From a virus (lineage: Duplodnaviria; Caudoviricetes), in the IMG/VR virus record IMGVR_UViG_3300031867_000003, positions 32,001-96,000 of that record: DNA of 64,000 bases; one strand, 5' to 3'. This document shows, one piece after another, positions 2,607-50,746 of the stretch (the first letter of the stretch is position 1; each line of letters opens with the position of its first letter). A program made the translations under genes and the position numbers. The notes beneath the pieces were generated by a model. That model was given only the letters and a program-made list of their open reading frames with translations. It made no database searches and was not told the origin of the DNA.

Positions 2607-3062
2607 ATGACGATTAATTTTATTAATGCAGATATTAAAACTGCACCACAGGGTTATACAATGGTTACAGCATTTTCAGCAGACTTCAACTGCGATGTTG
2701 GTATCAATAAAGTAATGGATCAGATGTTTAATATTGAGAAACGTAAATCCAATATTAAAGTATTTAAGGGCAAAAAGCTTGCCCGACTTGATAATTTATA
2801 TATGCTGCTTGTAAAAGACAGTAGTTATGATAAACCGGTATTTGACAATCTTATTGCTTGCCTTGAAGAATTCAAGACCAAGTGTAAAAAGAACGGTATC
2901 ACAAAAGTTGCCATGCCGGCAATTTGTACTGGGAAAAATGGTTTTGCTGTTGATGACGTGATTCAGGCAATTGATGAGATATTTTTCGACACTGATATTA
3001 GTATTGTAATGTATGTAGGTGATGAAGTATTTAGGTATGTTTGTTCCGCATATGAGGGTTAA
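2607..3062 (+). CDS. macrodomain protein (divergent TARG1/DarG-like)
   Basis: SADF..GI, LYMLLVK and AMPAICTG motifs. Paralog of 28037..28489. Confidence 0.65.
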   Translation: MTINFINADIKTAPQGYTMVTAFSADFNCDVGINKVMDQMFNIEKRKSNIKVFKGKKLARLDNLYMLLVKDSSYDKPVFDNLIACLEEFKTKCKKNGITKVAMPAICTGKNGFAVDDVIQAIDEIFFDTDISIVMYVGDEVFRYVCSAYEG

Positions 3063-3064
3063 TT

Positions 3065-4324
3065 ATGAGCGATTATAAGCCTGTATATTTAGTGATGGTA
3101 TCATCTAACAATAACAATAAATACTATCGTATGCTGGCGAATACCGATGGCGAAACTTTTACGGTTCAGTATGGCAGAGTAGGGGCGAGTTCTCAAACGA
3201 GGACTTACCCTCTGCGAGACTGGGATAAGAAATACAACGAGAAAATCCGCAAAGGTTACGTAGACCAAACACATCTGATGGAAGATTTAATATCGGTGGT
3301 GGATACGAAGCCGGATACTCCGGAGTATAAAGCAATCGAGAACGCTGCTATAGCAGAGATTGTTGACCGCTTAATGAGTATGGCTAAAAAGAAGGTCCAG
3401 CAGAATTACCGTGTGGAATCAAATCAAGTTACTCAGGCGATGGTTGACGAAGCGCAGAAAATAATTGATAGCCTTACAACTATAACAACGATTAAAGCGT
3501 TTAATGAGGAATTGATGAAACTGTTTACCACAATTCCGCGAAAGATGGGTAATGTTAATGATTATCTGGCTAGGTCAACTGATGATTTTGCCCGTATTAT
3601 TAAAGACGAACAAGATCTGCTTGATGTTATGCGAGGCCAGGTAATCACTCACTCGGCTATGGATGATAAACAGACGGCTTGGGATGATAGCGTTGAAAAT
3701 TCTCCGAAGAATGACAAGACCATTCTTGAGGCTATGGGTATTGTGATGAAACCCGTTAACGATGCCGAAGTTGAAGTCATTAAAGATATGTTGGGCGACT
3801 GCAAGGATAAATTCTATCAAGCGTGGAGAGTAACCAATTTGGCTACTCAAAAACGATTTGATGATTTTGTAGATAAAGAAAATATTAAAGATGTTAGGTT
3901 GTTTTGGCATGGGAGCAGAAATGAGAACTGGTGGTCAATTATTAATAATGGTTTGATGATTAGACCTACAAATGCTGTGATTACAGGAAAATTATACGGA
4001 TACGGTATTTACTTCGCCCCTAAAGCAAGAAAATCATTAGGGTATACAAGTTTAAGTGGCAGCTATTGGGCGAGAGGTGATTCATCATCTGGATTTATGG
4101 CATTAATGGAAGTTGCATATGGAGAACCATATGATGTTTATTCTTTTGACAGCAAATACAATTCATTAACTTATGATGAACTTCAAAAGTTTAAAAGAGG
4201 GGCTAATGCATTACATGCTCATGCCGGAGCCGACATGGGTTATGGCAATCCATTAAGAAATGATGAAGTAATAGTATATAAGGAAGATCAAGTAAGTATT
4301 AAATATTTAGTTGAATTGAGGTGA
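3065..4324 (+). CDS. PARP-family ADP-ribosyltransferase (WGR-like, helical regulatory and catalytic domains)
   Basis: NNNKYY...YGRVG WGR-like domain. H-Y-E triad in WHGSR, YGIYFA and NDEVIVY. Confidence 0.88.
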   Translation: MSDYKPVYLVMVSSNNNNKYYRMLANTDGETFTVQYGRVGASSQTRTYPLRDWDKKYNEKIRKGYVDQTHLMEDLISVVDTKPDTPEYKAIENAAIAEIVDRLMSMAKKKVQQNYRVESNQVTQAMVDEAQKIIDSLTTITTIKAFNEELMKLFTTIPRKMGNVNDYLARSTDDFARIIKDEQDLLDVMRGQVITHSAMDDKQTAWDDSVENSPKNDKTILEAMGIVMKPVNDAEVEVIKDMLGDCKDKFYQAWRVTNLATQKRFDDFVDKENIKDVRLFWHGSRNENWWSIINNGLMIRPTNAVITGKLYGYGIYFAPKARKSLGYTSLSGSYWARGDSSSGFMALMEVAYGEPYDVYSFDSKYNSLTYDELQKFKRGANALHAHAGADMGYGNPLRNDEVIVYKEDQVSIKYLVELR

Positions 4325-8854: not shown

Positions 8855-9055
8855 CCCTTTCAATATTATTAAAAATAACCGGTATGGGGGGGGAGATATA
8901 AGATGTTTTACGAAAAACATGGATATATTCCCGGAATTTTTCACCCATATAGTTTACAAGACACTTCGCAGATAGCTTGTACACTGTGTTGTGATTGCGG
9001 AGCGCCGGGACATGCAAGTAATATGATGGTGATAACTAAGGAAAGGATTGATTAA
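8829..9055 (+). CDS. TRD-like mini-gene 11, frameshifted at G8 (8886-8893)
   Basis: MSSV...NRYGG, then RYKMFYEKHGYIPGIFHPY...IACTLCCDCG...MMVI in a shifted frame. G6 or G9 restores the frame. Confidence 0.68.
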
Positions 9056-9057
9056 AT

Positions 9058-9348
9058 ATGAGTAGTGATAATATGACAGAAACAAAATACCGTTACAGAA
9101 TTCGCAAGCTTACGCCAAAGTGTTGTTGGCGTCTGATGGATATAGCCGGTCCAAATGATGAATACTTTAATCGGGCTGAACAAGTCAATTCGAATTCACA
9201 ATTGTACAAGCAGGCCGGCAACGGCATCGTCCGCTCAGTGCTGATGGGCATTTTCTCGCAGCTTGACATCGCCGGCATCCGCAAGTGGAATGACATGAGC
9301 GATGAAGAAATTAACCGTATGTTACATTATCAAGAAATTACCTCTTGA
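9058..9348 (+). CDS. C5 DNA methyltransferase, C-terminal part (motifs IX-X)
   Basis: RIRKLTPKCCWRLM (IX) and SQLYKQAGNGIV (X). Confidence 0.9.
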   Translation: MSSDNMTETKYRYRIRKLTPKCCWRLMDIAGPNDEYFNRAEQVNSNSQLYKQAGNGIVRSVLMGIFSQLDIAGIRKWNDMSDEEINRMLHYQEITS

Positions 9349-9410
9349 TTAATTATTAAATGTGTGGTAATGTATAGATAATCAATTAATTATTAAAGGA
9401 GGCATCCCAC

Positions 9411-9644
9411 ATGGCAGAACCCGGAACCCTAACCCAGGAGCATGTACTCCAGTGGACGAATACGATGATGGATTTGTACACGGACAGACGACTGATGACG
9501 TTCGGACTATTCCGAGATTTGTTTAACCACATCGAGTGGTACTACTGTAAGTATCCGGACGGTACAGTGGTGAAACTGTCGGGGAACGTCCACGTAGCTA
9601 TTGATGAGTTTAATAAGCGGTCGCCGAATAGTACCGCAATATAA
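9411..9644 (+). CDS. hypothetical protein
   Basis: SD AAGGAGG. Follows a promoter-like TTGATT-17-TAATGT at 9345-9373. Confidence 0.65.
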   Translation: MAEPGTLTQEHVLQWTNTMMDLYTDRRLMTFGLFRDLFNHIEWYYCKYPDGTVVKLSGNVHVAIDEFNKRSPNSTAI

Positions 9645-9657
9645 GGTGGTGATTATC

Positions 9658-10227
9658 ATTAGCAAATATAGCGGGAAATGCGATCTATACGATGTTCTTG
9701 TAGATATCCGTGAAATCACTGACTTCTCTAAAGTAAAAATATACTCGGCTAACAATTCTATTATCCCGTTACGAATTGATTCTCAGAAAGATTTAATGCC
9801 GTACTACCCATATATAGTCGCAATAAGCGTTGGGGATAGTGACGGCACTCAAATTATCCACTTGAGTGATAAATCTTACGTTGACACCGAAGAAGAAGAA
9901 CATCTCATCTGGGATCTTGATACTCTTAAGCGGTATTATCGCCGCCAGAAGCGCAAACATCAGCCGTTTGATAGCGATGAAGCGCTGAAGAAAATAAGTT
10001 TTTTTGACGACCCTGCCGAGTACAAGAAAGAACTTGTTAATCGTGTCATAGAACTCGGCGAAAAAGCTACCATAGAAGATATACATATCCCATTCATGGA
10101 TACCATGAGACAGCGACTTTATGAAGATATGGTTGCTGCTGGATGGAATGACGATAGAGCTTATGAGTGGTGCTTCGGCTGGAAGAGATTGTGGGATAGG
10201 ACGAAAAACACCTTGTCCAAAAGCTAG
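9658..10227 (+). CDS. hypothetical phage protein (start uncertain, likely ATT after AAGGTGGTGA)
   Basis: SKYSGKCDLYD N-terminus. Ends at TAG, so it may extend about 6 codons under code 15. Confidence 0.6.
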   Translation: MSKYSGKCDLYDVLVDIREITDFSKVKIYSANNSIIPLRIDSQKDLMPYYPYIVAISVGDSDGTQIIHLSDKSYVDTEEEEHLIWDLDTLKRYYRRQKRKHQPFDSDEALKKISFFDDPAEYKKELVNRVIELGEKATIEDIHIPFMDTMRQRLYEDMVAAGWNDDRAYEWCFGWKRLWDRTKNTLSKS

Positions 10228-10299
10228 GAAAACACTAGAAAATAAATTATTAAAAAATGCAATGAAAATTGAATTTTATTGGAAGATATTAGGCTTCCT

Positions 10300-10490
10300 A
10301 CCGGGCGAGGTATTATCCCACGCCCAATAATCACGGATATTCCGCGAGGGATATTTCGTGCGGGTTATTTTGGCCCCGAAAGCTGAGGGAGTATATTTTG
10401 ATGATGGGTTATACACCGTTACGATGTATTCCGGAGAAATATATTACCACTCGGCAAAACCGATGTAAATTTTATACAGTGCCGAATGTG
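10300..10490 (+). ncRNA. putative tracrRNA of the Cas12f-like system
   Basis: 5' hairpin GGGCG...CGCCC. Anti-repeat ACCGATGTAAATTTTATACA (10459-10478) pairs with the repeat, using G:U pairs and one bulge. Confidence 0.7.
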
Positions 10491-10496
10491 AATTTG

Positions 10497-11059
10497 AGGT
10501 TGTAGATGTGAGGATTTACATTGGTACAAAACCTTTGCCAATCGTTCTACGTCCGAATACTTGTTTTATAGATGTGAGGATTTACATTGGTACAAAATCT
10601 TAGCCATCAAAATCCCTCATTTGTAACTGTTTTGTAGATGTAAGGATTTACATTGGTACAAAACCTTATCTGGAAGATATGTCAGTGAAGGAAGTTTTGG
10701 AAATGTAAGGATTTACATAGGTACAAAACTTCAAGCCAGCTTGATTTAAGTTTACGCTTGTTTTGTAGATGTTAGAATTTATATTGGTACAAAACCCACC
10801 GGATCCGAACGATACTGATTGACATGTTTTGTAGGTGTAGGGATTTACATTGGTACAAAACTAGAGCCGACAAGGGGAATGCATAAGTTTCGTTTTGCAG
10901 GTGCAAGGATTTACATAGGTACAAAACCATAAAGACAAAGCCCGAAACGCCATCAACGTTTTGTAGGTGCAAGGATTTACATAGATACAAAAACTCGGCA
11001 GTTTCGAAGTTCTATAGACTTCTACTTTGGAAGTGTAAAGATTTATGTGGAGATATAAT
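10497..11059 (+). CRISPR. CRISPR array: 8 repeats plus 1 degenerate terminal repeat, 8 spacers of 29-30 nt
   Basis: Consensus GTTTTGTAGATGTAAGGATTTACATTGGTACAAAAC (36 nt) at 10497, 10563, 10629, 10694, 10760, 10826, 10892 and 10958. Degenerate copy at 11024. Confidence 0.95.
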
Positions 11060-11061
11060 AA

Positions 11062-12408
11062 ATGATTACGAGAAAAATTCAGTTATATCCTATTGGAGAT
11101 GAAAAAGAAGTTGATAGAGTATACACATATTTAAGAGATAGCATTAAATCGCAGAATAAAGCGATGAATCAATATATGTCTAATCTGTATGTGGAAGAAT
11201 TATTAAATGCGTCCAAAGAAGATCGAAAAGAATTAAATGCATTATATACTAGAATTCCGACCAGTAAAAAAGGAAGCGCTTATAGTCTGGATTTGGAATT
11301 CCAAAAAGGACAGATGCTTGGTTATATAACCAGAGCAATAGATTCAGATTTTAAAAAATCACTAAAAGACGGGTTGATGTATGGGAAAGTATCTCTCCCG
11401 GTTTACTCAAATAGCAATCCGTTATTAGTTCATGTGAATTATTGCAATTTGCGTAGTAAGGTTCAAAAACAAACAGGCACTAACACTGGTATTTACCACA
11501 ACTACGAATCTCATCAGGAGTTTTTATCTCATTTGTATAAAACAGATATAGAAATATATCTTCAGTTCTGCAATAATATTTTGTTTAAATTAAATCTCGG
11601 TGATAGCCTCAGAAAATCTCGCGAAATCCGTTCAGTAATACAGAAAATATTTGAGGAAGAATATATTATCCACGGTTCGCAGATCCAGTTAAAGAAGAGG
11701 AAAACTGGCAAGGGCGAAGATATATTCTTACTGCTATCAATCGAAACTCCGGTTGTTAAGCATGAACTTGATGAAAATATTGTTGTCGGCGTAGATCTCG
11801 GCGTGGCAAATCCGGCAGTATGTGCAGTAAACATTAACGGCAATTATAAATTCCTGGGCGACGGAGAAACATTCCTTCATTATAAACAAAAATCCAAAGC
11901 CGAAAGACGCAGACTTCAGAGAGCTCTAAAGTATACAAATGGCGGTCACGGAAGAACCAAAAAACTGAAAGCACTCGATAGATTGAAAGAACGTGAGAGC
12001 AACTTTACTACAACGTATTCTCATAAGCTCTCAAAAGATGTTGTAGATTTTGCCATTGAACAGCATGCCAAATACATCAACCTCGAGGATTTAACCGGAA
12101 TAGATGACAAAGATGGTAAAAAACTTCTCGATTGTTGGAAATACTACGAACTTCAGCAGTTTATTATCTACAAAGCTACTCATCATGGCATAGTAGTCCG
12201 CTTTATTAATCCAAAATATACATCTCAGACTTGTTCCAAGTGCGGAAATCATGCCGAGGGGCAGCGTGACGGTCATAGTTTTACATGTAAAGATTGTGGC
12301 GAAGAGCTTGATGCCGATCTTAATGCAGCCAGAAACATTGCTATGTCAACAAATTTTGTTGAAAGAGGCAAGAAGAAAAAGAAAAAGAATAAAACCGATA
12401 ATAAATAA
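11062..12408 (+). CDS. cas12f: Cas12f-like (TnpB-derived, type V-F/V-U3-like) RNA-guided nuclease
   Basis: 448 aa. RuvC GVDLG, NLEDL and DADLNAARNIA. Zn ribbon CSKC/CKDC and GGHGRTKKL motif. Directly follows the array. Confidence 0.82.
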   Translation: MITRKIQLYPIGDEKEVDRVYTYLRDSIKSQNKAMNQYMSNLYVEELLNASKEDRKELNALYTRIPTSKKGSAYSLDLEFQKGQMLGYITRAIDSDFKKSLKDGLMYGKVSLPVYSNSNPLLVHVNYCNLRSKVQKQTGTNTGIYHNYESHQEFLSHLYKTDIEIYLQFCNNILFKLNLGDSLRKSREIRSVIQKIFEEEYIIHGSQIQLKKRKTGKGEDIFLLLSIETPVVKHELDENIVVGVDLGVANPAVCAVNINGNYKFLGDGETFLHYKQKSKAERRRLQRALKYTNGGHGRTKKLKALDRLKERESNFTTTYSHKLSKDVVDFAIEQHAKYINLEDLTGIDDKDGKKLLDCWKYYELQQFIIYKATHHGIVVRFINPKYTSQTCSKCGNHAEGQRDGHSFTCKDCGEELDADLNAARNIAMSTNFVERGKKKKKKNKTDNK

Positions 12409-12570
12409 TATTTTGCCTGAGACGGCATTGTTACTACCGAAGAAATGAATTCGGTAGCTAATAACTGACCAATTAAGCGGTGGGTTGGGGTTAGCTCCGA
12501 AAGGTGATTATGTCCAAGGATGAAGTAACTACCGCATCTACTAAGAGATAAAATATAATAGTTGGAAGGA

Positions 12571-13668
12571 GTGATTACTATAGATATTGATGTTAGTGAA
12601 TTACGGGTGGGATAGGTTTATAGTTATAAAGAATTGTGTGAACTGATAGGTGCTGAGTATAAAAAAGGCGCTGGCAAAACTTATCAACTAGAAAAATTTG
12701 GAGAAACAGGATTTCAGAGATTTTTTAATTTTGAAAAAGTAGGACGAGGAAAGTATGAGGTTCTTGAAATCTATGATGAACCGCTCCCTATAGAAGATGA
12801 AAGACATAAAGGTAATAACAAAGTATACAAACATTACATAGAGCTGGTATTAATGAATTATCTGGCGAAGAAAGGTACTCACGTTGAAACATTTACTATG
12901 AGAGATCTGTGGCAGCTCCTCGGAATGATAAATGAAAAATATGGGAAAGTAGATAACGATAAACTACTTTCTATGAATAGCTGCATTACGTCATATGAAA
13001 TTAATAATTTCTATTTTAGGAGTGATAAAAAGTTACGTCAAATATTATTATCCGCACTTAAAAATTTGCGCAATAGAAGATTAATAGACTGGCAATTACA
13101 AACAGTTGTCTGTAAAGAGAAGAACGGCAAGGAAGAATGGTTTGTAGCTAATGATAGCGAAATAGAATTAATTCTTGATGCAGAATACGAGATACTTCAT
13201 CGAATGGGATTTACAAAAATGTTTCAGGTGATTTCTTCTTTTAAAACAAAAGAATTTTATACAGCCGTCGAGAATCTTTTATATAAGAAGAAAAAATGGA
13301 AAAATTATTATAAGCGATATAAAATTATATTCAACGCCAACAACATAAAAGAATCCGTTCCCGACGTCGAAGCAGAGCTAAAAAGAGCATTATTAAATGC
13401 AAAAATCATATTATACTTAAATAACGAAGCAGAAACGGCATATAATTCAAAACTAAAAGAATACAATGGCAATCTGGCGCATGAAGTTTACGTTCAAGGA
13501 AATATTATTGAAGCACTACATGCTTTCAAATATCCCGATGATTATGTAGTTGCTCAGAGGATGTTGTCAGATGAACTTATTAATACGCATGATTACTCGC
13601 CCGAAATTATTAATGAGTTACTTAATACAGAAGCGTCAGATAAAGAATTGGATATGATGTTTCCTTGA
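12571..13668 (+). CDS. putative DNA-binding or replication initiator protein with in-frame TAG (12613-12615)
   Basis: ELRVG(TAG)VYSYKELCELIG continues into the 344-aa ORF. Start uncertain (GTG 12571 or ATA 12580). Followed by an AT-rich inverted repeat. Confidence 0.55.
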
Positions 13669-13680
13669 TGGAGAATTTTT

Positions 13681-13745
13681 TTACACAATTTATAATTTCA
13701 TACTATATAATTCCTTAGTATAGTATACCGTTTTAAATTGTGTAA
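13681..13745. repeat. AT-rich inverted repeat, possible origin element
   Basis: TTACACAATTTA...TAAATTGTGTAA enclosing ATACTATA/TATAGTAT. A second hairpin lies at 13817-13846. Confidence 0.55.
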
Positions 13746-13892
13746 TCGGAATTATATTACTGTCTACCTCAACAAAGCATTGTTTCGGTAGAAAAAATCT
13801 TAATTTATTAACTAGCCCGCATCGGCAAATACTTTTGTCGGTGCGGAAAATATAAACTAATAACCATATATATTCCCAAAGGAGGACACCTT

Positions 13893-16489
13893 ATGTACGC
13901 AGAATGCATCAATCCACCAAATGAACTATTTACTAGCGGAGAATTATACCAGTATTCACAACCTGGCGAAGATTACGAAGTCTACGTAAGCGACTACTAT
14001 ACGTTGCTGTTATCTGATGAACAATTTGATTATTACTTCCGACAAGTATAAGGAGATTTTGCCATGGAACGATTATCTGGCGAATACAATCGCGGTTTTA
14101 CACAAGGGATTCTCGCAGTTCAGGGCGTACTCAAATACATACAGCCAGATTTATCCCATCACCACAAACGACTAACTCCAAAGTTGATAGATGAATTATT
14201 AAAATGTTGTATAGATAACCGTGAAAATCTGCGAGAGAGTGTTAATGGCTTCATTAGATATAATGGTACTACTAAATCATTTGAGTTTTATGAGCCGAAT
14301 ACAAGGAGGTAATCACTATGAATGAATCAAAATTTGCTGTAGGAGACAAGGTTGTCCTCGGCTACCGTAGGGTTTTAAATCCTGCTATCGGCATAGTCAT
14401 CAGAGTTACCGATAAGCGGAAGGATGTGATCGTAGATTTTGACGGATTCCAACAAACATTTGATTGCTATGGTCGCAGTAAATCCGTTGACATATGGTAC
14501 AGTAGCTACATTGAGTTACTTACCCCGGCTATGGAACAAGACATCGAGGATAACTTGGTAATCGCCAAGTGTAAAAAGATGATGAAAGATACCACATTGA
14601 TCAATGCCGATCAGGCAGCCAGAATAATTGCAATTCTTGAGGAGGAATCCAATGAACATTGATATTATTAATAATAATGGTAACACTACCGACAAAGAAC
14701 TCCCCGACATCTATCCCCTTACCATAGTTCGCGATCGATATAATGGTACGTATTCCGGTGGTTATTTTACCGCATGGAATCTTTATCCCTGGGGTATTCC
14801 GGAGGAAGTTTTTGGCGATGATAATTCATGTTGGAGTTATTTCAGAACTACTCGTGATATATATGGATGCGGAGCCACTCCGGATGAGGCAATTGCGAAT
14901 TTAGCAAAAAGATTAAAGGAGAATATAGATGATGAGTAAGGATAATCACAAAGTAACCGCCACTTGGTCTGGGAATTACCCGTGTTTATGCATCGGTACC
15001 TGGACACTGACTATTGACGGTGTCGATTATACTGACCATATACCCCGGGAAATTGTTAATGAACCGATGTACACCTTCGGCACTTATACTGAGTGGTACT
15101 TTGATGACGAATGGCAAGAGCAATTTAATGACTACGAAGACGGTTTATCCTCTGTCGATTGGATCGCCGCTAATGATGAATGGCTGAGTACGATAACCGA
15201 TGATTATAACCTCAAATCCCAGATTTACTTCGCATTTAATAAGAACGATTTCCGCTATGGTAGTTGTGGCGGTTGTATATGATGAGATGATTAAGGAGAA
15301 TTCTCTATGGTAAGAATTATTATTTGTGGTTCACGAGAGTTTAATGATTATGCCAAACTTTGCCGAGTAATGGATAATATCGGCATCCATGCTATTGCCA
15401 ATAACGATTATGTCGAAATTATCAGCGGTCATTGTCGGGGAGCAGATATCTGTGGCGAAAAATTTGCCACCACGTATGGCTATCCGCTCAAGGTGTTTAA
15501 AGCCGATTGGGAGACTTACGGTAAAGCTGCCGGACCGATCCGTAATCGCCAGATGGCCAAGTATGCCGCCCAGGCTGATGAGGGCGTTGTAGTTGCATTT
15601 CCGATTGGATCAAGCCGTGGAACTCGCCATATGGTAGACATTGCTAATCAGTATGGACTTGAGGTTTATGTAATTGAGGAGAACGATGATGTCGAAGCCG
15701 ATTGAAACAAGTGATAGCAAACCTAAATTTCTTTCATTAATAGACGAATTGGAAGAATCCGGCAAATTCCCAAGCTATGAACAGTTTTTGGAACTTTATG
15801 ATTGTGCTTATAATGAGGGATACAAGAGAGGGCACGATGATGGTTACAAGGTAGGGCTAGCCGTAGGAAAATATTCTAAGTGGCTGGAAGCACACGAAGA
15901 GGATAACCCTATGGACAATACGAAAAATCGCAACTGTCACTCGTGTAAGTATGATAATCAGTATAACGTACATTGGTCATGCTGCTTGTGTCGTGCCGGA
16001 AGTCAATGGGAGAGCGCCGATGAAGAACAGAATTAAACGATTTATTAAACAGTTGTTTTGTCACCATGAGTATCATATAATCCGTTGGCATTATACTCAT
16101 GGTCCGATAAATAATGATCCGCCGTTTATTGAAGGTCTCAAGATGTGTGCCGAATGCGGTAAAAGGAAGTATTTTTATTGTTCCCAAAGTAGTGAACTCG
16201 GAAAATATATTATGACTTGTCTGCAAGGACGACAGTGGTAAGGAGAATTAGTATGAAAATAAAGGTTAAAGATTTATTTGCGAATGTTCTATTACCGAAT
16301 GCTATTGTCCTATTACTCATTGAGGACGGCGGTTTTGTCGGTATATTTGAAGCAGGAAGTTATCCGGTACAATATGCGTGGTGGGAAGTAACCGGTGTAA
16401 CCAGCGATTACTTCGAAGGTGATGGACCGTTTGATGGATCGGTAGTTAAGGTATGGATTAAAGAATCTGATGATGATGAAGAAGGTTAA
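13893..16489 (+). other. cluster of small hypothetical ORFs (e.g. 14064, 14318, 14652, 14929, 16020, 16253)
   Basis: Tightly packed ORFs with SD sequences and overlaps. Confidence 0.65.
15307..15705 (+). CDS. SLOG-family (DUF2493/YspA-like) protein
   Basis: IICGSREF, ISGHCRGAD, GKAAGPIRNRQM and SRGT motifs. Confidence 0.85.
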   Translation: MVRIIICGSREFNDYAKLCRVMDNIGIHAIANNDYVEIISGHCRGADICGEKFATTYGYPLKVFKADWETYGKAAGPIRNRQMAKYAAQADEGVVVAFPIGSSRGTRHMVDIANQYGLEVYVIEENDDVEAD

Positions 16490-49543: not shown

Positions 49544-50746
49544 TTGTGTCTGCTTGCATCTGATGCTACTATAGATACATCATATATCCGTTCTCAGATT
49601 GATGATATGAACCGGAGAAAGAAGTATCTAAACAACCATAAGTATGCAATCACGCAAAATAAAGATGGGAAGTGGTACACATATTTGCCCGATCCCGTTA
49701 AGGGCAGAAAATTGTATAAAAGAAGTTCGAGAAAAGAATTGGAAGATATCATAGTAGAATGCTATGAAAAGTTGGAGTCACTAGGCTCAACGTTCGAAGA
49801 AGTGTATTTCATGTGGAGAGAATATAAAGATAAGATGGTGTCCGATAATACGGCAGTCAGATATGATACTGACTACGCCAGATGTCTCGAGGGTACTGAT
49901 TTTGTAAAGATGCCGGTGTCAGTAATTACTGAAGATGACATATCTGTATTTATAAAACAGCGGATCGAGTCCCTGAAGTTGCCGAAGAAAGCAGCCAAAA
50001 TGTTATTCGGATACATCCACAACACTTTGTTATTCGCTTGCCGCCACAAGCTGATTGACGAAGATGTGATGAGGTTCATGAAACCCGGCGAATTTTATGA
50101 GTACTGTGTGGCATCAAAAAGATCGCAAAAATCCCAGACTATTAGCGATGAGGATAATGCTAAACTTCAGGCATTGTTGAGGGATGACATACAAAACAAT
50201 CCGACTTACATTCCTCCATATGCCGTAGTACTATCTTCGCTGACCGGAATGAGAGTCGGCGAACTGGCTGCATTAACTTGGGACTGCGTATTCGAAGATC
50301 GTTTATTAATTAACAAATCAGAGAAGTATAATCGCAAGACCAAGACCTACTCAATTGAAGGTACTAAGAATGGTAAATCCAGGGTATTTCCAATGACCAA
50401 AGAAATTAAAGAACTTCTTTATAACCTCAAAAAGATCGAAATTGCCAATGGATTCTTAACTGAATACGTATTTAGCGGAGAATCCGGACGAATTCATACA
50501 AATGTAATATGTAGTTGTATTAAAAACAAATGCCGAACTTTAGGTATTACAGAGCGAGGAATTCACGCATACCGTAAAACACTGAACTCCAAAATGAGAT
50601 GTAGCGGTGTCTCGGCAACGGTTGCGGCGAGTTTGCTCGGTCACTCACCAGAAGTCAACGAGCAATACTACACGTATGATGTTGCAGATTTCTCGACCAA
50701 AACAAGTATCATTTCCGAATTAAATAAGAAGGTAATGGGGGAATAA
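49544..50746 (+). CDS. tyrosine integrase (start may be ATA 49517)
   Basis: TGMRVGEL, TKNGKSR, HAYR, LLGH and catalytic Y in QYY. Confidence 0.92.
   Translation: MCLLASDATIDTSYIRSQIDDMNRRKKYLNNHKYAITQNKDGKWYTYLPDPVKGRKLYKRSSRKELEDIIVECYEKLESLGSTFEEVYFMWREYKDKMVSDNTAVRYDTDYARCLEGTDFVKMPVSVITEDDISVFIKQRIESLKLPKKAAKMLFGYIHNTLLFACRHKLIDEDVMRFMKPGEFYEYCVASKRSQKSQTISDEDNAKLQALLRDDIQNNPTYIPPYAVVLSSLTGMRVGELAALTWDCVFEDRLLINKSEKYNRKTKTYSIEGTKNGKSRVFPMTKEIKELLYNLKKIEIANGFLTEYVFSGESGRIHTNVICSCIKNKCRTLGITERGIHAYRKTLNSKMRCSGVSATVAASLLGHSPEVNEQYYTYDVADFSTKTSIISELNKKVMGE

Follow-up and report, generated by a model that had tools for sequence, protein, structure and literature searches.

How might a phage without adaptation genes of its own keep a CRISPR array supplied with spacers? 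The question is raised by a stretch of 64,000 nucleotides, here called the window, which comprises bases 32001-96000 of the 202,175-bp IMG/VR virus record IMGVR_UViG_3300031867_000003, a genome rated 100% complete by CheckV. Between the end of the upstream open reading frame (ORF) at 10227 and position 12408, the window carries a non-coding stretch, a CRISPR array and an ORF of 448 amino acids, all on the + strand. The original prediction for this locus listed a candidate trans-activating CRISPR RNA (tracrRNA), an 8-spacer array and a 448-residue RuvC nuclease with an intact D-E-D triad. It read them as a phage-borne mini CRISPR system of Cas12f, tracrRNA and array, lacking adaptation genes. 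All of these elements are present, at slightly corrected coordinates, and that reading stands. As also predicted, no cas1, cas2 or cas4 was found in the window, and none was found in the complete 202,175-bp record. Similarly, neither Cas9 nor Csn2 had a match anywhere in the 202-kb phage genome, and a cas9-cas1-cas2-csn2 operon next to the array is absent. The phage system is thus not of type II-A, and its type II-A design is limited to the array. We think it probable that the locus is a working phage-borne Cas12f interference module of type V-F1 (V-U3 clade), with an array of type II-A design into which spacers would be written by the type II-A machinery of the host.

The array and its leader end are made up of the following features.

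10492..10498, + strand: ATTTGAG at the end of the leader, immediately before repeat 1; the anchoring motif of type II-A Group-1 leaders
10499..11059, + strand: CRISPR array of 9 repeats and 8 spacers
10499-10532, + strand: repeat 1, 34 nt, lacking a TT that close relatives have
Starts at 10563, 10629, 10694, 10760, 10826, 10892 and 10958, + strand: seven repeats of 36 nt
11024..11059, + strand: degenerate ninth repeat, containing the cas12f Shine-Dalgarno sequence GGAG (11047-11050)
10533-10562, 10599-10628, 10665-10693 and 10730-10759, + strand: spacers 1-4, of 30, 30, 29 and 30 nt
10796-10825, 10862-10891, 10928-10957 and 10994-11023, + strand: spacers 5-8, 30 nt each

Because the GGAG of cas12f lies inside the last repeat, the tracrRNA, the array and cas12f share one direction of transcription. 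The likeness to type II-A arrays had been noted from the geometry of 36-nt repeats and 30-nt spacers, and it extends to the Group-1 leader-repeat junction, ATTTGAG/GTT (the slash marks the junction). In Group-1 type II-A systems the junction is ATTTGAG/GTTT, repeats are 36 nt long and the motif acts in adaptation (PMC5382924). The window array has the ATTTGAG leader end, repeats of the form GTTT(T)...AAAAC, 36-bp repeats and 30-bp spacers. This comparison strongly supports the prediction that it holds every cis feature used by type II-A Cas1-Cas2 integration.

Two irregularities of the array may be recorded here. At the junction of the window ATTTGAG is followed by GTTG, two T's having been lost, where relative L003 and a variant in sequencing run X2 keep both (GTTTTG). 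The 34-nt first repeat may be a real deletion in the T run, possibly blocking further integration, or a homopolymer assembly error. The repeats also form a gradient between 10563 and 10993, the leader-side copies sharing GTAGATGTGAGG or GTAGATGTAAGG and the trailer-side copies GTAGGTGCAAGG, a pattern that would follow from new repeats being copies of the first one and older repeats drifting.

The same design recurs throughout the phage family. We assembled 99 arrays with 128 unique spacers from about 90 related phage loci (L numbers below denote loci and contigs). They begin (A/T)TTGAG/GTTT and have 36-nt repeats and a modal spacer length of 30. The exact ATTTGAG is found in L003, L004 and L006 and in 60 of the 99. 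Within 572 kb of related loci the string TTTGAG/GTT was observed 105 times against 4.4 expected, an excess of about 24-fold, and at nearly all sites it leads into the opening repeat of an array next to cas12f.

Bacterial arrays of true type II-A were sampled from Clostridia, where csn2 occurs in 22 of 399 genomes, so that type II-A hosts do exist in this class. Thirteen csn2-adjacent arrays from these genomes have the leader end ATTTGAG (11) or TTTTGAG (2), followed by GTTTGAGA... The phage repeats match the Clostridia type II-A repeats at a mean best identity of 23.8/36 (maximum 28), compared with 18.2 for a control in which the inner 28 nt were shuffled. Consensus stretches common to both are GTTT.AGA, T.TAA.TT, TA.GGTA and AAAC.

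The format is not one of Cas12f systems at large. The native array of RhCas12f, a relative of the phage effector, combines repeats of 30 nt with spacers of 35-36 nt and lacks a junction motif abutting the repeat, and published Cas12f systems have spacers of 33-39 nt. Because these formats differ, the 36/30 spacing with its anchoring motif is a feature of the phage lineage and not of V-F1 generally. Within the RhCas12f native locus (L100), an ATTTGAG does occur at about 1130-1150, some 9 nt ahead of the first repeat of the 30/36-format array, whose first two spacers are exact copies of each other. A 204-aa ORF (2800-3414, - strand) that by eye resembles a serine recombinase lies immediately upstream of the gene.

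Spacer content changes at one end of these arrays. The array of L003, whose Cas12f is 97% identical to that of the window, shares spacers 7 and 8 with it (2 and 1 mismatches), while the leader-side spacers, six in the window and four in L003, are all different. Similarly, the run X2 variant, which comes from another metagenome and has about 94% identity, keeps spacer 8 and differs in the spacers upstream. In the family as a whole there are 19 non-identical pairs of related arrays with one or more spacers in common; 16 of these pairs share the trailer side and differ on the leader side, and the reverse was seen in 0. L028, then L030 and L032, then L031 form a nested series of 2, 3 and 4 spacers. 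Cas1 was absent from all ten related phage records searched, five of them at least 98% complete. These patterns strongly support the view that the related phages gain spacers at the leader end only, apparently with no phage-encoded Cas1 in those examined, which is consistent with acquisition in trans. From the cis elements and the polarity of the arrays we infer that a host type II-A adaptation complex writes the new spacers.

Some spacers may move by another route. On the reverse strand of L111, the IMG/VR contig of L047, one 30-nt spacer stands twice in succession (5855 and 5921). The same spacer recurs in an array of a different type, with the downstream-type repeat, on phage contig L110. 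This suggests that spacers are also duplicated and exchanged between arrays.

The nuclease that would read the array is encoded directly after it.

11062..12408, + strand: cas12f gene, 448 aa, type V-F1/V-U3 clade
11794-11796, 12085-12087 and 12316-12318, + strand: RuvC residues D245, E342 and D419, invariant in the family alignment
Within cas12f: zinc ribbon CxxC...CxxC formed by C391, C394, C409 and C412, invariant in the family alignment

Placement of the effector rests on profile and PDB scores. The PADLOC Cas12f profile PDLC01699 matched at 1.2e-99 (residues 2-434 on profile positions 3-396 of 399) and the Cas12u3 (V-U3) profile PDLC00932 at 3.6e-99 over its full length, the remaining PADLOC Cas12f subfamilies reaching 1e-43 at best. 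Pfam matches were to Cas12f1-like_TNB (PF07282, 3.7e-24) and OrfB_IS605. The top PDB matches were all Cas12f: 8hr5 (CnCas12f1) at 4e-62 and 9NZP at 1.2e-49, followed by 9nzo/9nzr (4.5e-47; PDB entries titled as Cas12f effector/nuclease), 8j1j (1.1e-44) and 7wju (3.6e-42). In the same comparison Cas-phi scored only 4.7e-08 and ISDra2-type TnpB only 1e-7. We take 9NZP to be RhCas12f, and 9NZO/9NZR, 8J1J and 7WJU to be Al3Cas12f, OsCas12f and AsCas12f1, the pairing being our own reading. The solved orthologues are named in PMC13186708, which is also the source of the names Al3Cas12f and OsCas12f. Identity with CnCas12f1 and RhCas12f is mostly limited to the C-terminal 280 residues, and the D-E-D residues and four zinc-ribbon cysteines align to those of CnCas12f1. 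Assignment to Cas12f2 (Cas14b) was considered and rejected, since NCBIfam NF049972, whose cut-off is 450 bits, gave 131 and matched the C-terminal half alone.

Homologues with 59-97% protein identity were all found in phage-like contexts, and they too have such an array immediately before the gene. Among the 399 sampled Clostridia genomes a single one encodes a homologue at E 1e-40 or better, and that protein is identical to PDB 9NZP (1.6e-276). The scores and alignments strongly support identification of the 448-aa protein as a Cas12f1-family nuclease with, by alignment, intact catalytic residues. The original prediction had entertained an independent transition from TnpB to Cas12. This is contradicted by the full-length matches to the V-U3 and Cas12f1 profiles, by the relatedness to CnCas12f1 and RhCas12f and by a tracrRNA core homologous to that of RhCas12f; judged by these scores, the effector is an ordinary new member of the characterised V-F1/V-U3 family. 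Absence of adaptation genes is itself a known trait of V-U3 systems (PMC7229846).

Upstream of the leader lies the putative guide scaffold.

10329..10472, + strand: tracrRNA, a conserved structured RNA, consisting of a 5' hairpin (about 10332-10360), a CGGG/CCCG helix, a long hairpin CUGAGGG...CCACUCGG that carries an insertion specific to the lineage and, at the 3' end, the anti-repeat
10460..10472, + strand: anti-repeat CCGATGTAAATTT, pairing with ATTTACATTGG in the 3' half of the repeat, with one G-U pair

The element is kept upstream of the array in L004-L007, L009 and L097. RNAalifold predicted three helices of 17 pairs from a six-locus alignment, with compensatory changes in 7 pairs. A covariance model, R1, built from a trimmed alignment of seven loci, gave 159 hits in 75 sources, one to six per locus; all 159 lie on the strand of the gene, typically just upstream of an array. 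The hit in the window (10358-10472, 58 bits) is preceded by the 5' hairpin that starts at 10329, and in many relatives the hits are about 63-65 nt long. Over 120 distinct sequences, in an alignment that had been fitted to the model, 98% of cells were paired compared with 78.6% after shuffling, and 10 of 12 pairs covaried; sliding the partner strand reduced pairing to 25-45%.

The anti-repeat is also matched to its own array. In the window the duplex with the repeat has a predicted energy of -19.7 kcal/mol. Across 71 modules, cognate duplexes averaged -12.0 kcal/mol and non-cognate ones -8.8 (Mann-Whitney p 9e-16). The mean for the anti-repeat was -14.4 kcal/mol against the full repeat and -8.8 against the reverse-complemented repeat. 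Since it is the 3' half of the repeat to which the 3' anti-repeat pairs, the guide is predicted, with strong support from this pairing, to join the 3' part of the repeat to the spacer downstream, which is also the arrangement in other Cas12f systems. The best R1 hit in the RhCas12f locus falls between gene and array (E 0.003) and has both helices in common. Together with the homology of the nuclease this places both the effector and the tracrRNA core in the V-F1 lineage. The Rfam scan of 9000-14000 matched no family at E up to 1.

Relatives often carry the scaffold in several copies. L025, L077, L085 and other IMG/VR loci have 2-6 separate modules of tracrRNA, leader and mini-array around one cas12f. 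Every module has a separate repeat variant, an anti-repeat that matches it and a TTTGAG/GTTT junction of its own, so that one nuclease apparently serves several variants of the guide scaffold.

The targets of the system could be approached through a sister subfamily of about 42% protein identity. Six of its spacers, independent of one another, have matches in other phage contigs, and genes for a scaffold protein and a major head protein occur in one group of those targeted. CC precedes five of the six protospacers, at positions -3 and -2 (p 1.2e-7, calculated from how often CC occurs in the targets), which gives 5'-CCN. Mismatches are clustered at the 3' end of the spacer, and the 3' flanks of the six share no common motif. 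For this sister subfamily the matches strongly support targeting of the type V kind, with a predicted 5'-CCN protospacer-adjacent motif (PAM) and a PAM-proximal seed at the 5' end of the spacer. Such a C-rich 5' PAM and 5' seed fit solved relatives with C-rich PAMs. We also considered whether 5'-CCN might be the NGG of Cas9 seen on the other strand and set this aside, as it needs a non-canonical spacer orientation and the relatives with C-rich PAMs offer a simpler explanation. A small phage lineage with head and scaffold genes on 10-25-kb contigs (L107; 2849-2878, 5389-5409, 7590-7619 and 10436-10465) is matched by at least 4 different spacers from different Cas12f-carrying phages and looks like a recurrent competitor.

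The explanation that we consider probable joins these observations in the following way. Host Cas1-Cas2-Csn2(-Cas9) would add new spacers to the phage array in a bacterium of the Firmicutes that has a type II-A system, probably during residence of the phage, which encodes an integrase. The phage Cas12f, with its tracrRNA, would then read the acquired spacers and cut competing phages, the functional spacers being those that happen to carry the Cas12f PAM. The corresponding claim for the family is one on which we are evenly balanced: that large gut and rumen phages of an entire lineage bear a chimeric CRISPR system in which V-F1 Cas12f and its tracrRNA have become adjusted to reading type II-A arrays, written by host Cas1-Cas2-Csn2 and directed at rivals.

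Several results weigh against this explanation. No host was found, and no host type II-A locus is linked to the phage or to its relatives. When 185,579 species genomes were scanned for the repeat pattern, there were 5 hits, about the level of chance, and no Cas9-associated array of this repeat type, none of the hits lying next to cas9. The one real hit is a phage-type module on a 1.7-kb contig of an Oscillospiraceae metagenome-assembled genome (MAG). That MAG has no match to Cas1 or Csn2, which is uninformative because it is incomplete and its contig binning unreliable. The window's own repeats are 20-21/36 identical to Clostridia type II-A repeats, which is inside the range of the control, and they vary among themselves. 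With a first repeat of 34 nt, this copy may no longer acquire spacers. The fitted alignment lowers the weight of the tracrRNA covariation, and the PAM and target evidence stems from the more distant subfamily. The targets of this phage are known for 0 of its 8 spacers: none had a protospacer in its own 202 kb, where there is no self-target, or in any of the related loci retrieved, and 22-23-nt prefixes had zero hits in IMG/VR (spacers 1-3) and in JGI metagenome contigs (spacers 1 and 5). Finally, canonical Cas9-guided type II-A acquisition would leave a 3' flanking motif, and the six protospacers share none. This suggests that Cas9 does not pick the spacers or that the hosts differ. If a host type II-A integrase is at work, PAM choice is bypassed or later selection keeps those spacers that have a Cas12f PAM.

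Two of these gaps, the missing host link and the missing 3' PAM-like motif, speak for an explanation by ancestry alone. A host array would have been captured once, and spacer differences would have arisen since by recombination between arrays or through an integrase that is unknown or not of type II-A; the duplicated spacers of L111 and of the RhCas12f array show that recombination or duplication does happen. The leader, however, is conserved in its last 7-9 nt only, across loci whose proteins are 36-55% identical, and where a locus has up to several modules each of them retains the junction motif. A junction kept amid such divergence indicates that the junction itself is under selection. The motif is not known to be required by Cas12f or by the tracrRNA, and RhCas12f manages without it at its junction. 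Furthermore, strict turnover at the leader end and a nested series are the signature of addition by an integrase and not of random recombination. We therefore regard descent from a captured array as unlikely to be the whole explanation.

The irregularities of the window array bear on a different possibility, that the module of this phage is a decaying relic that neither acquires spacers nor interferes any longer. Its repeats vary from copy to copy, the first being short by 2 nt and the last degenerate, and targets of its spacers were not found. The array of this phage may indeed be frozen, its first repeat having lost 2 nt. Decay of the whole module is harder to reconcile with an intact ORF that has all its catalytic residues, with a tracrRNA that retains its structure and its pairing to the repeat, and with relatives at 97% and about 94% identity that keep the module with different leader-side spacers. 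A relic seems improbable to us.

We attach still less probability to a role centred on the host Cas9, in which the arrays would mainly serve or subvert that enzyme, their crRNAs (CRISPR RNAs) loading through the host tracrRNA either against rival phages or as a decoy, with Cas12f secondary. It is true that leader, repeat ends, 5' half of the repeat and spacer length are all like those of type II-A, and subversion of Cas9 by phage RNAs is reported in a preprint (10.64898/2026.06.01.729453). Each array nevertheless has its own co-varying tracrRNA, with the 3' anti-repeat on the 3' half of the repeat in type V geometry, and an intact cas12f always stands beside the arrays. The 5'-CCN PAM and 5' seed, with no 3' PAM, also fit Cas12f and not Cas9.

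That the gene is the TnpB of an IS200/IS605 or IS607 element with a downstream omega RNA, and the array an unrelated neighbour, is suggested by its NCBIfam family, guided_TnpB (176.6 bits), and by the label "transposase" on relatives in public records, but is highly improbable, given IS200_TnpB and IS607_TnpB scores of 71 and 51 bits against cut-offs of 425 and 350, a gene present as a single copy in the phage genome with no TnpA, conservation of array and tracrRNA beside the gene in about 90 loci, relatives almost devoid of non-coding DNA past the stop codon and, 3' of the gene, where the original prediction had allowed for an omega RNA as the sole guide, no structured RNA, neither a second tracrRNA module nor an omega RNA having been detected below E 0.4.

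The genome around the module is that of a large phage, as indicated by PHROG matches in the window to a polymerase, a DNA methyltransferase, a NAD-dependent DNA ligase, NrdD, an integrase and a tail fibre. The only sequencing run that contains the entire window is from a bovine gut metagenome, which is probably the source of the phage. In the INPHARED phage collection the locus and the window array were unmatched, and the arrays of two relatives gave noise only. The integrase (window 49544-50746, 400 aa) matches phrog_1 at 6.8e-34, and the 379-kb record behind the relative L033 is classed as a provirus by IMG/VR. A resident lifestyle would allow the host time to acquire spacers. The gene that follows cas12f (window 12572-13668) has an apparent GTG start at 12572 behind a GGAAGGA ribosome-binding site and contains an in-frame TAG at 12614-12616 (GGA TAG GTT), while cas12f is free of in-frame stops under the standard code.

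The module shares with V-F1/V-U3 Cas12f1 systems a nuclease of about 420-500 aa that has the RuvC D-E-D residues and a TNB domain with zinc ribbon, a small array next to a tracrRNA whose 3' end is the anti-repeat, and the absence of cas1, cas2 and cas4 (PMC7229846). Cleavage of double-stranded DNA by a homodimer on one guide RNA, dependent on a 5' PAM, is a trait of the V-F1 family, represented here only by the 5'-CCN flank and 5' seed of the sister subfamily. The phage module differs from those systems in being phage-borne, in having the array upstream of the gene with type II-A features and, in many relatives, in the 2-6 tracrRNA-array modules. With Group-1 type II-A systems (the S. thermophilus CRISPR1 type and the csn2-linked arrays of Clostridia) it has in common the ATTTGAG/GTTT junction, 36-nt repeats ending in AAAC, 30-nt spacers and leader-end polarity (PMC5382924). 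It differs from them in the lack of cas9, cas1, cas2 and csn2, in a tracrRNA of type V build on the 3' half of the repeat and in a 5' PAM.

Phage-encoded Cas-phi (Cas12j) and Cas-lambda systems are also found in large phages and similarly combine one small RuvC effector with short arrays, no Cas1 or Cas2 and a presumed use against competitors, but they belong to Cas12 families separate from the phage Cas12f. Cas-phi needs no tracrRNA. For neither did we find a report of a leader junction of type II-A. Acquisition in trans across types has reported precedents: a type VI-B system using type II-C adaptation (PMC8092290) and a type IV-A3 system using the Cas1-Cas2 of another system (bioRxiv 10.1101/2023.06.23.546257). 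As reported, both resemble the phage module in pairing an effector module lacking adaptation genes with the integrase of another type, through compatible leader and repeat features. In the phage case, known from sequence, a virus would be borrowing from its host, and V-F would be paired with II-A. We found no description of Cas12f combined with the type II-A array format and its leader-anchoring motif in the literature searched, and consider the combination new.

The family offers many compact Cas12f orthologues (about 425-450 aa) with short tracrRNAs and, in the sister subfamily, a predicted 5'-CCN PAM, which may be of interest for genome editing. As the cis requirement amounts to only about 45 bp, the leader end and one repeat, the proposed acquisition is directly testable in existing adaptation assays of S. 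thermophilus or S. pyogenes. If correct, it would represent natural CRISPR adaptation across types, from II-A to V-F, and across genomes, from host to virus. A virus would thus be parasitising the adaptation machinery of its host across CRISPR types, which would explain how phage CRISPR systems that lack adaptation genes stay current.

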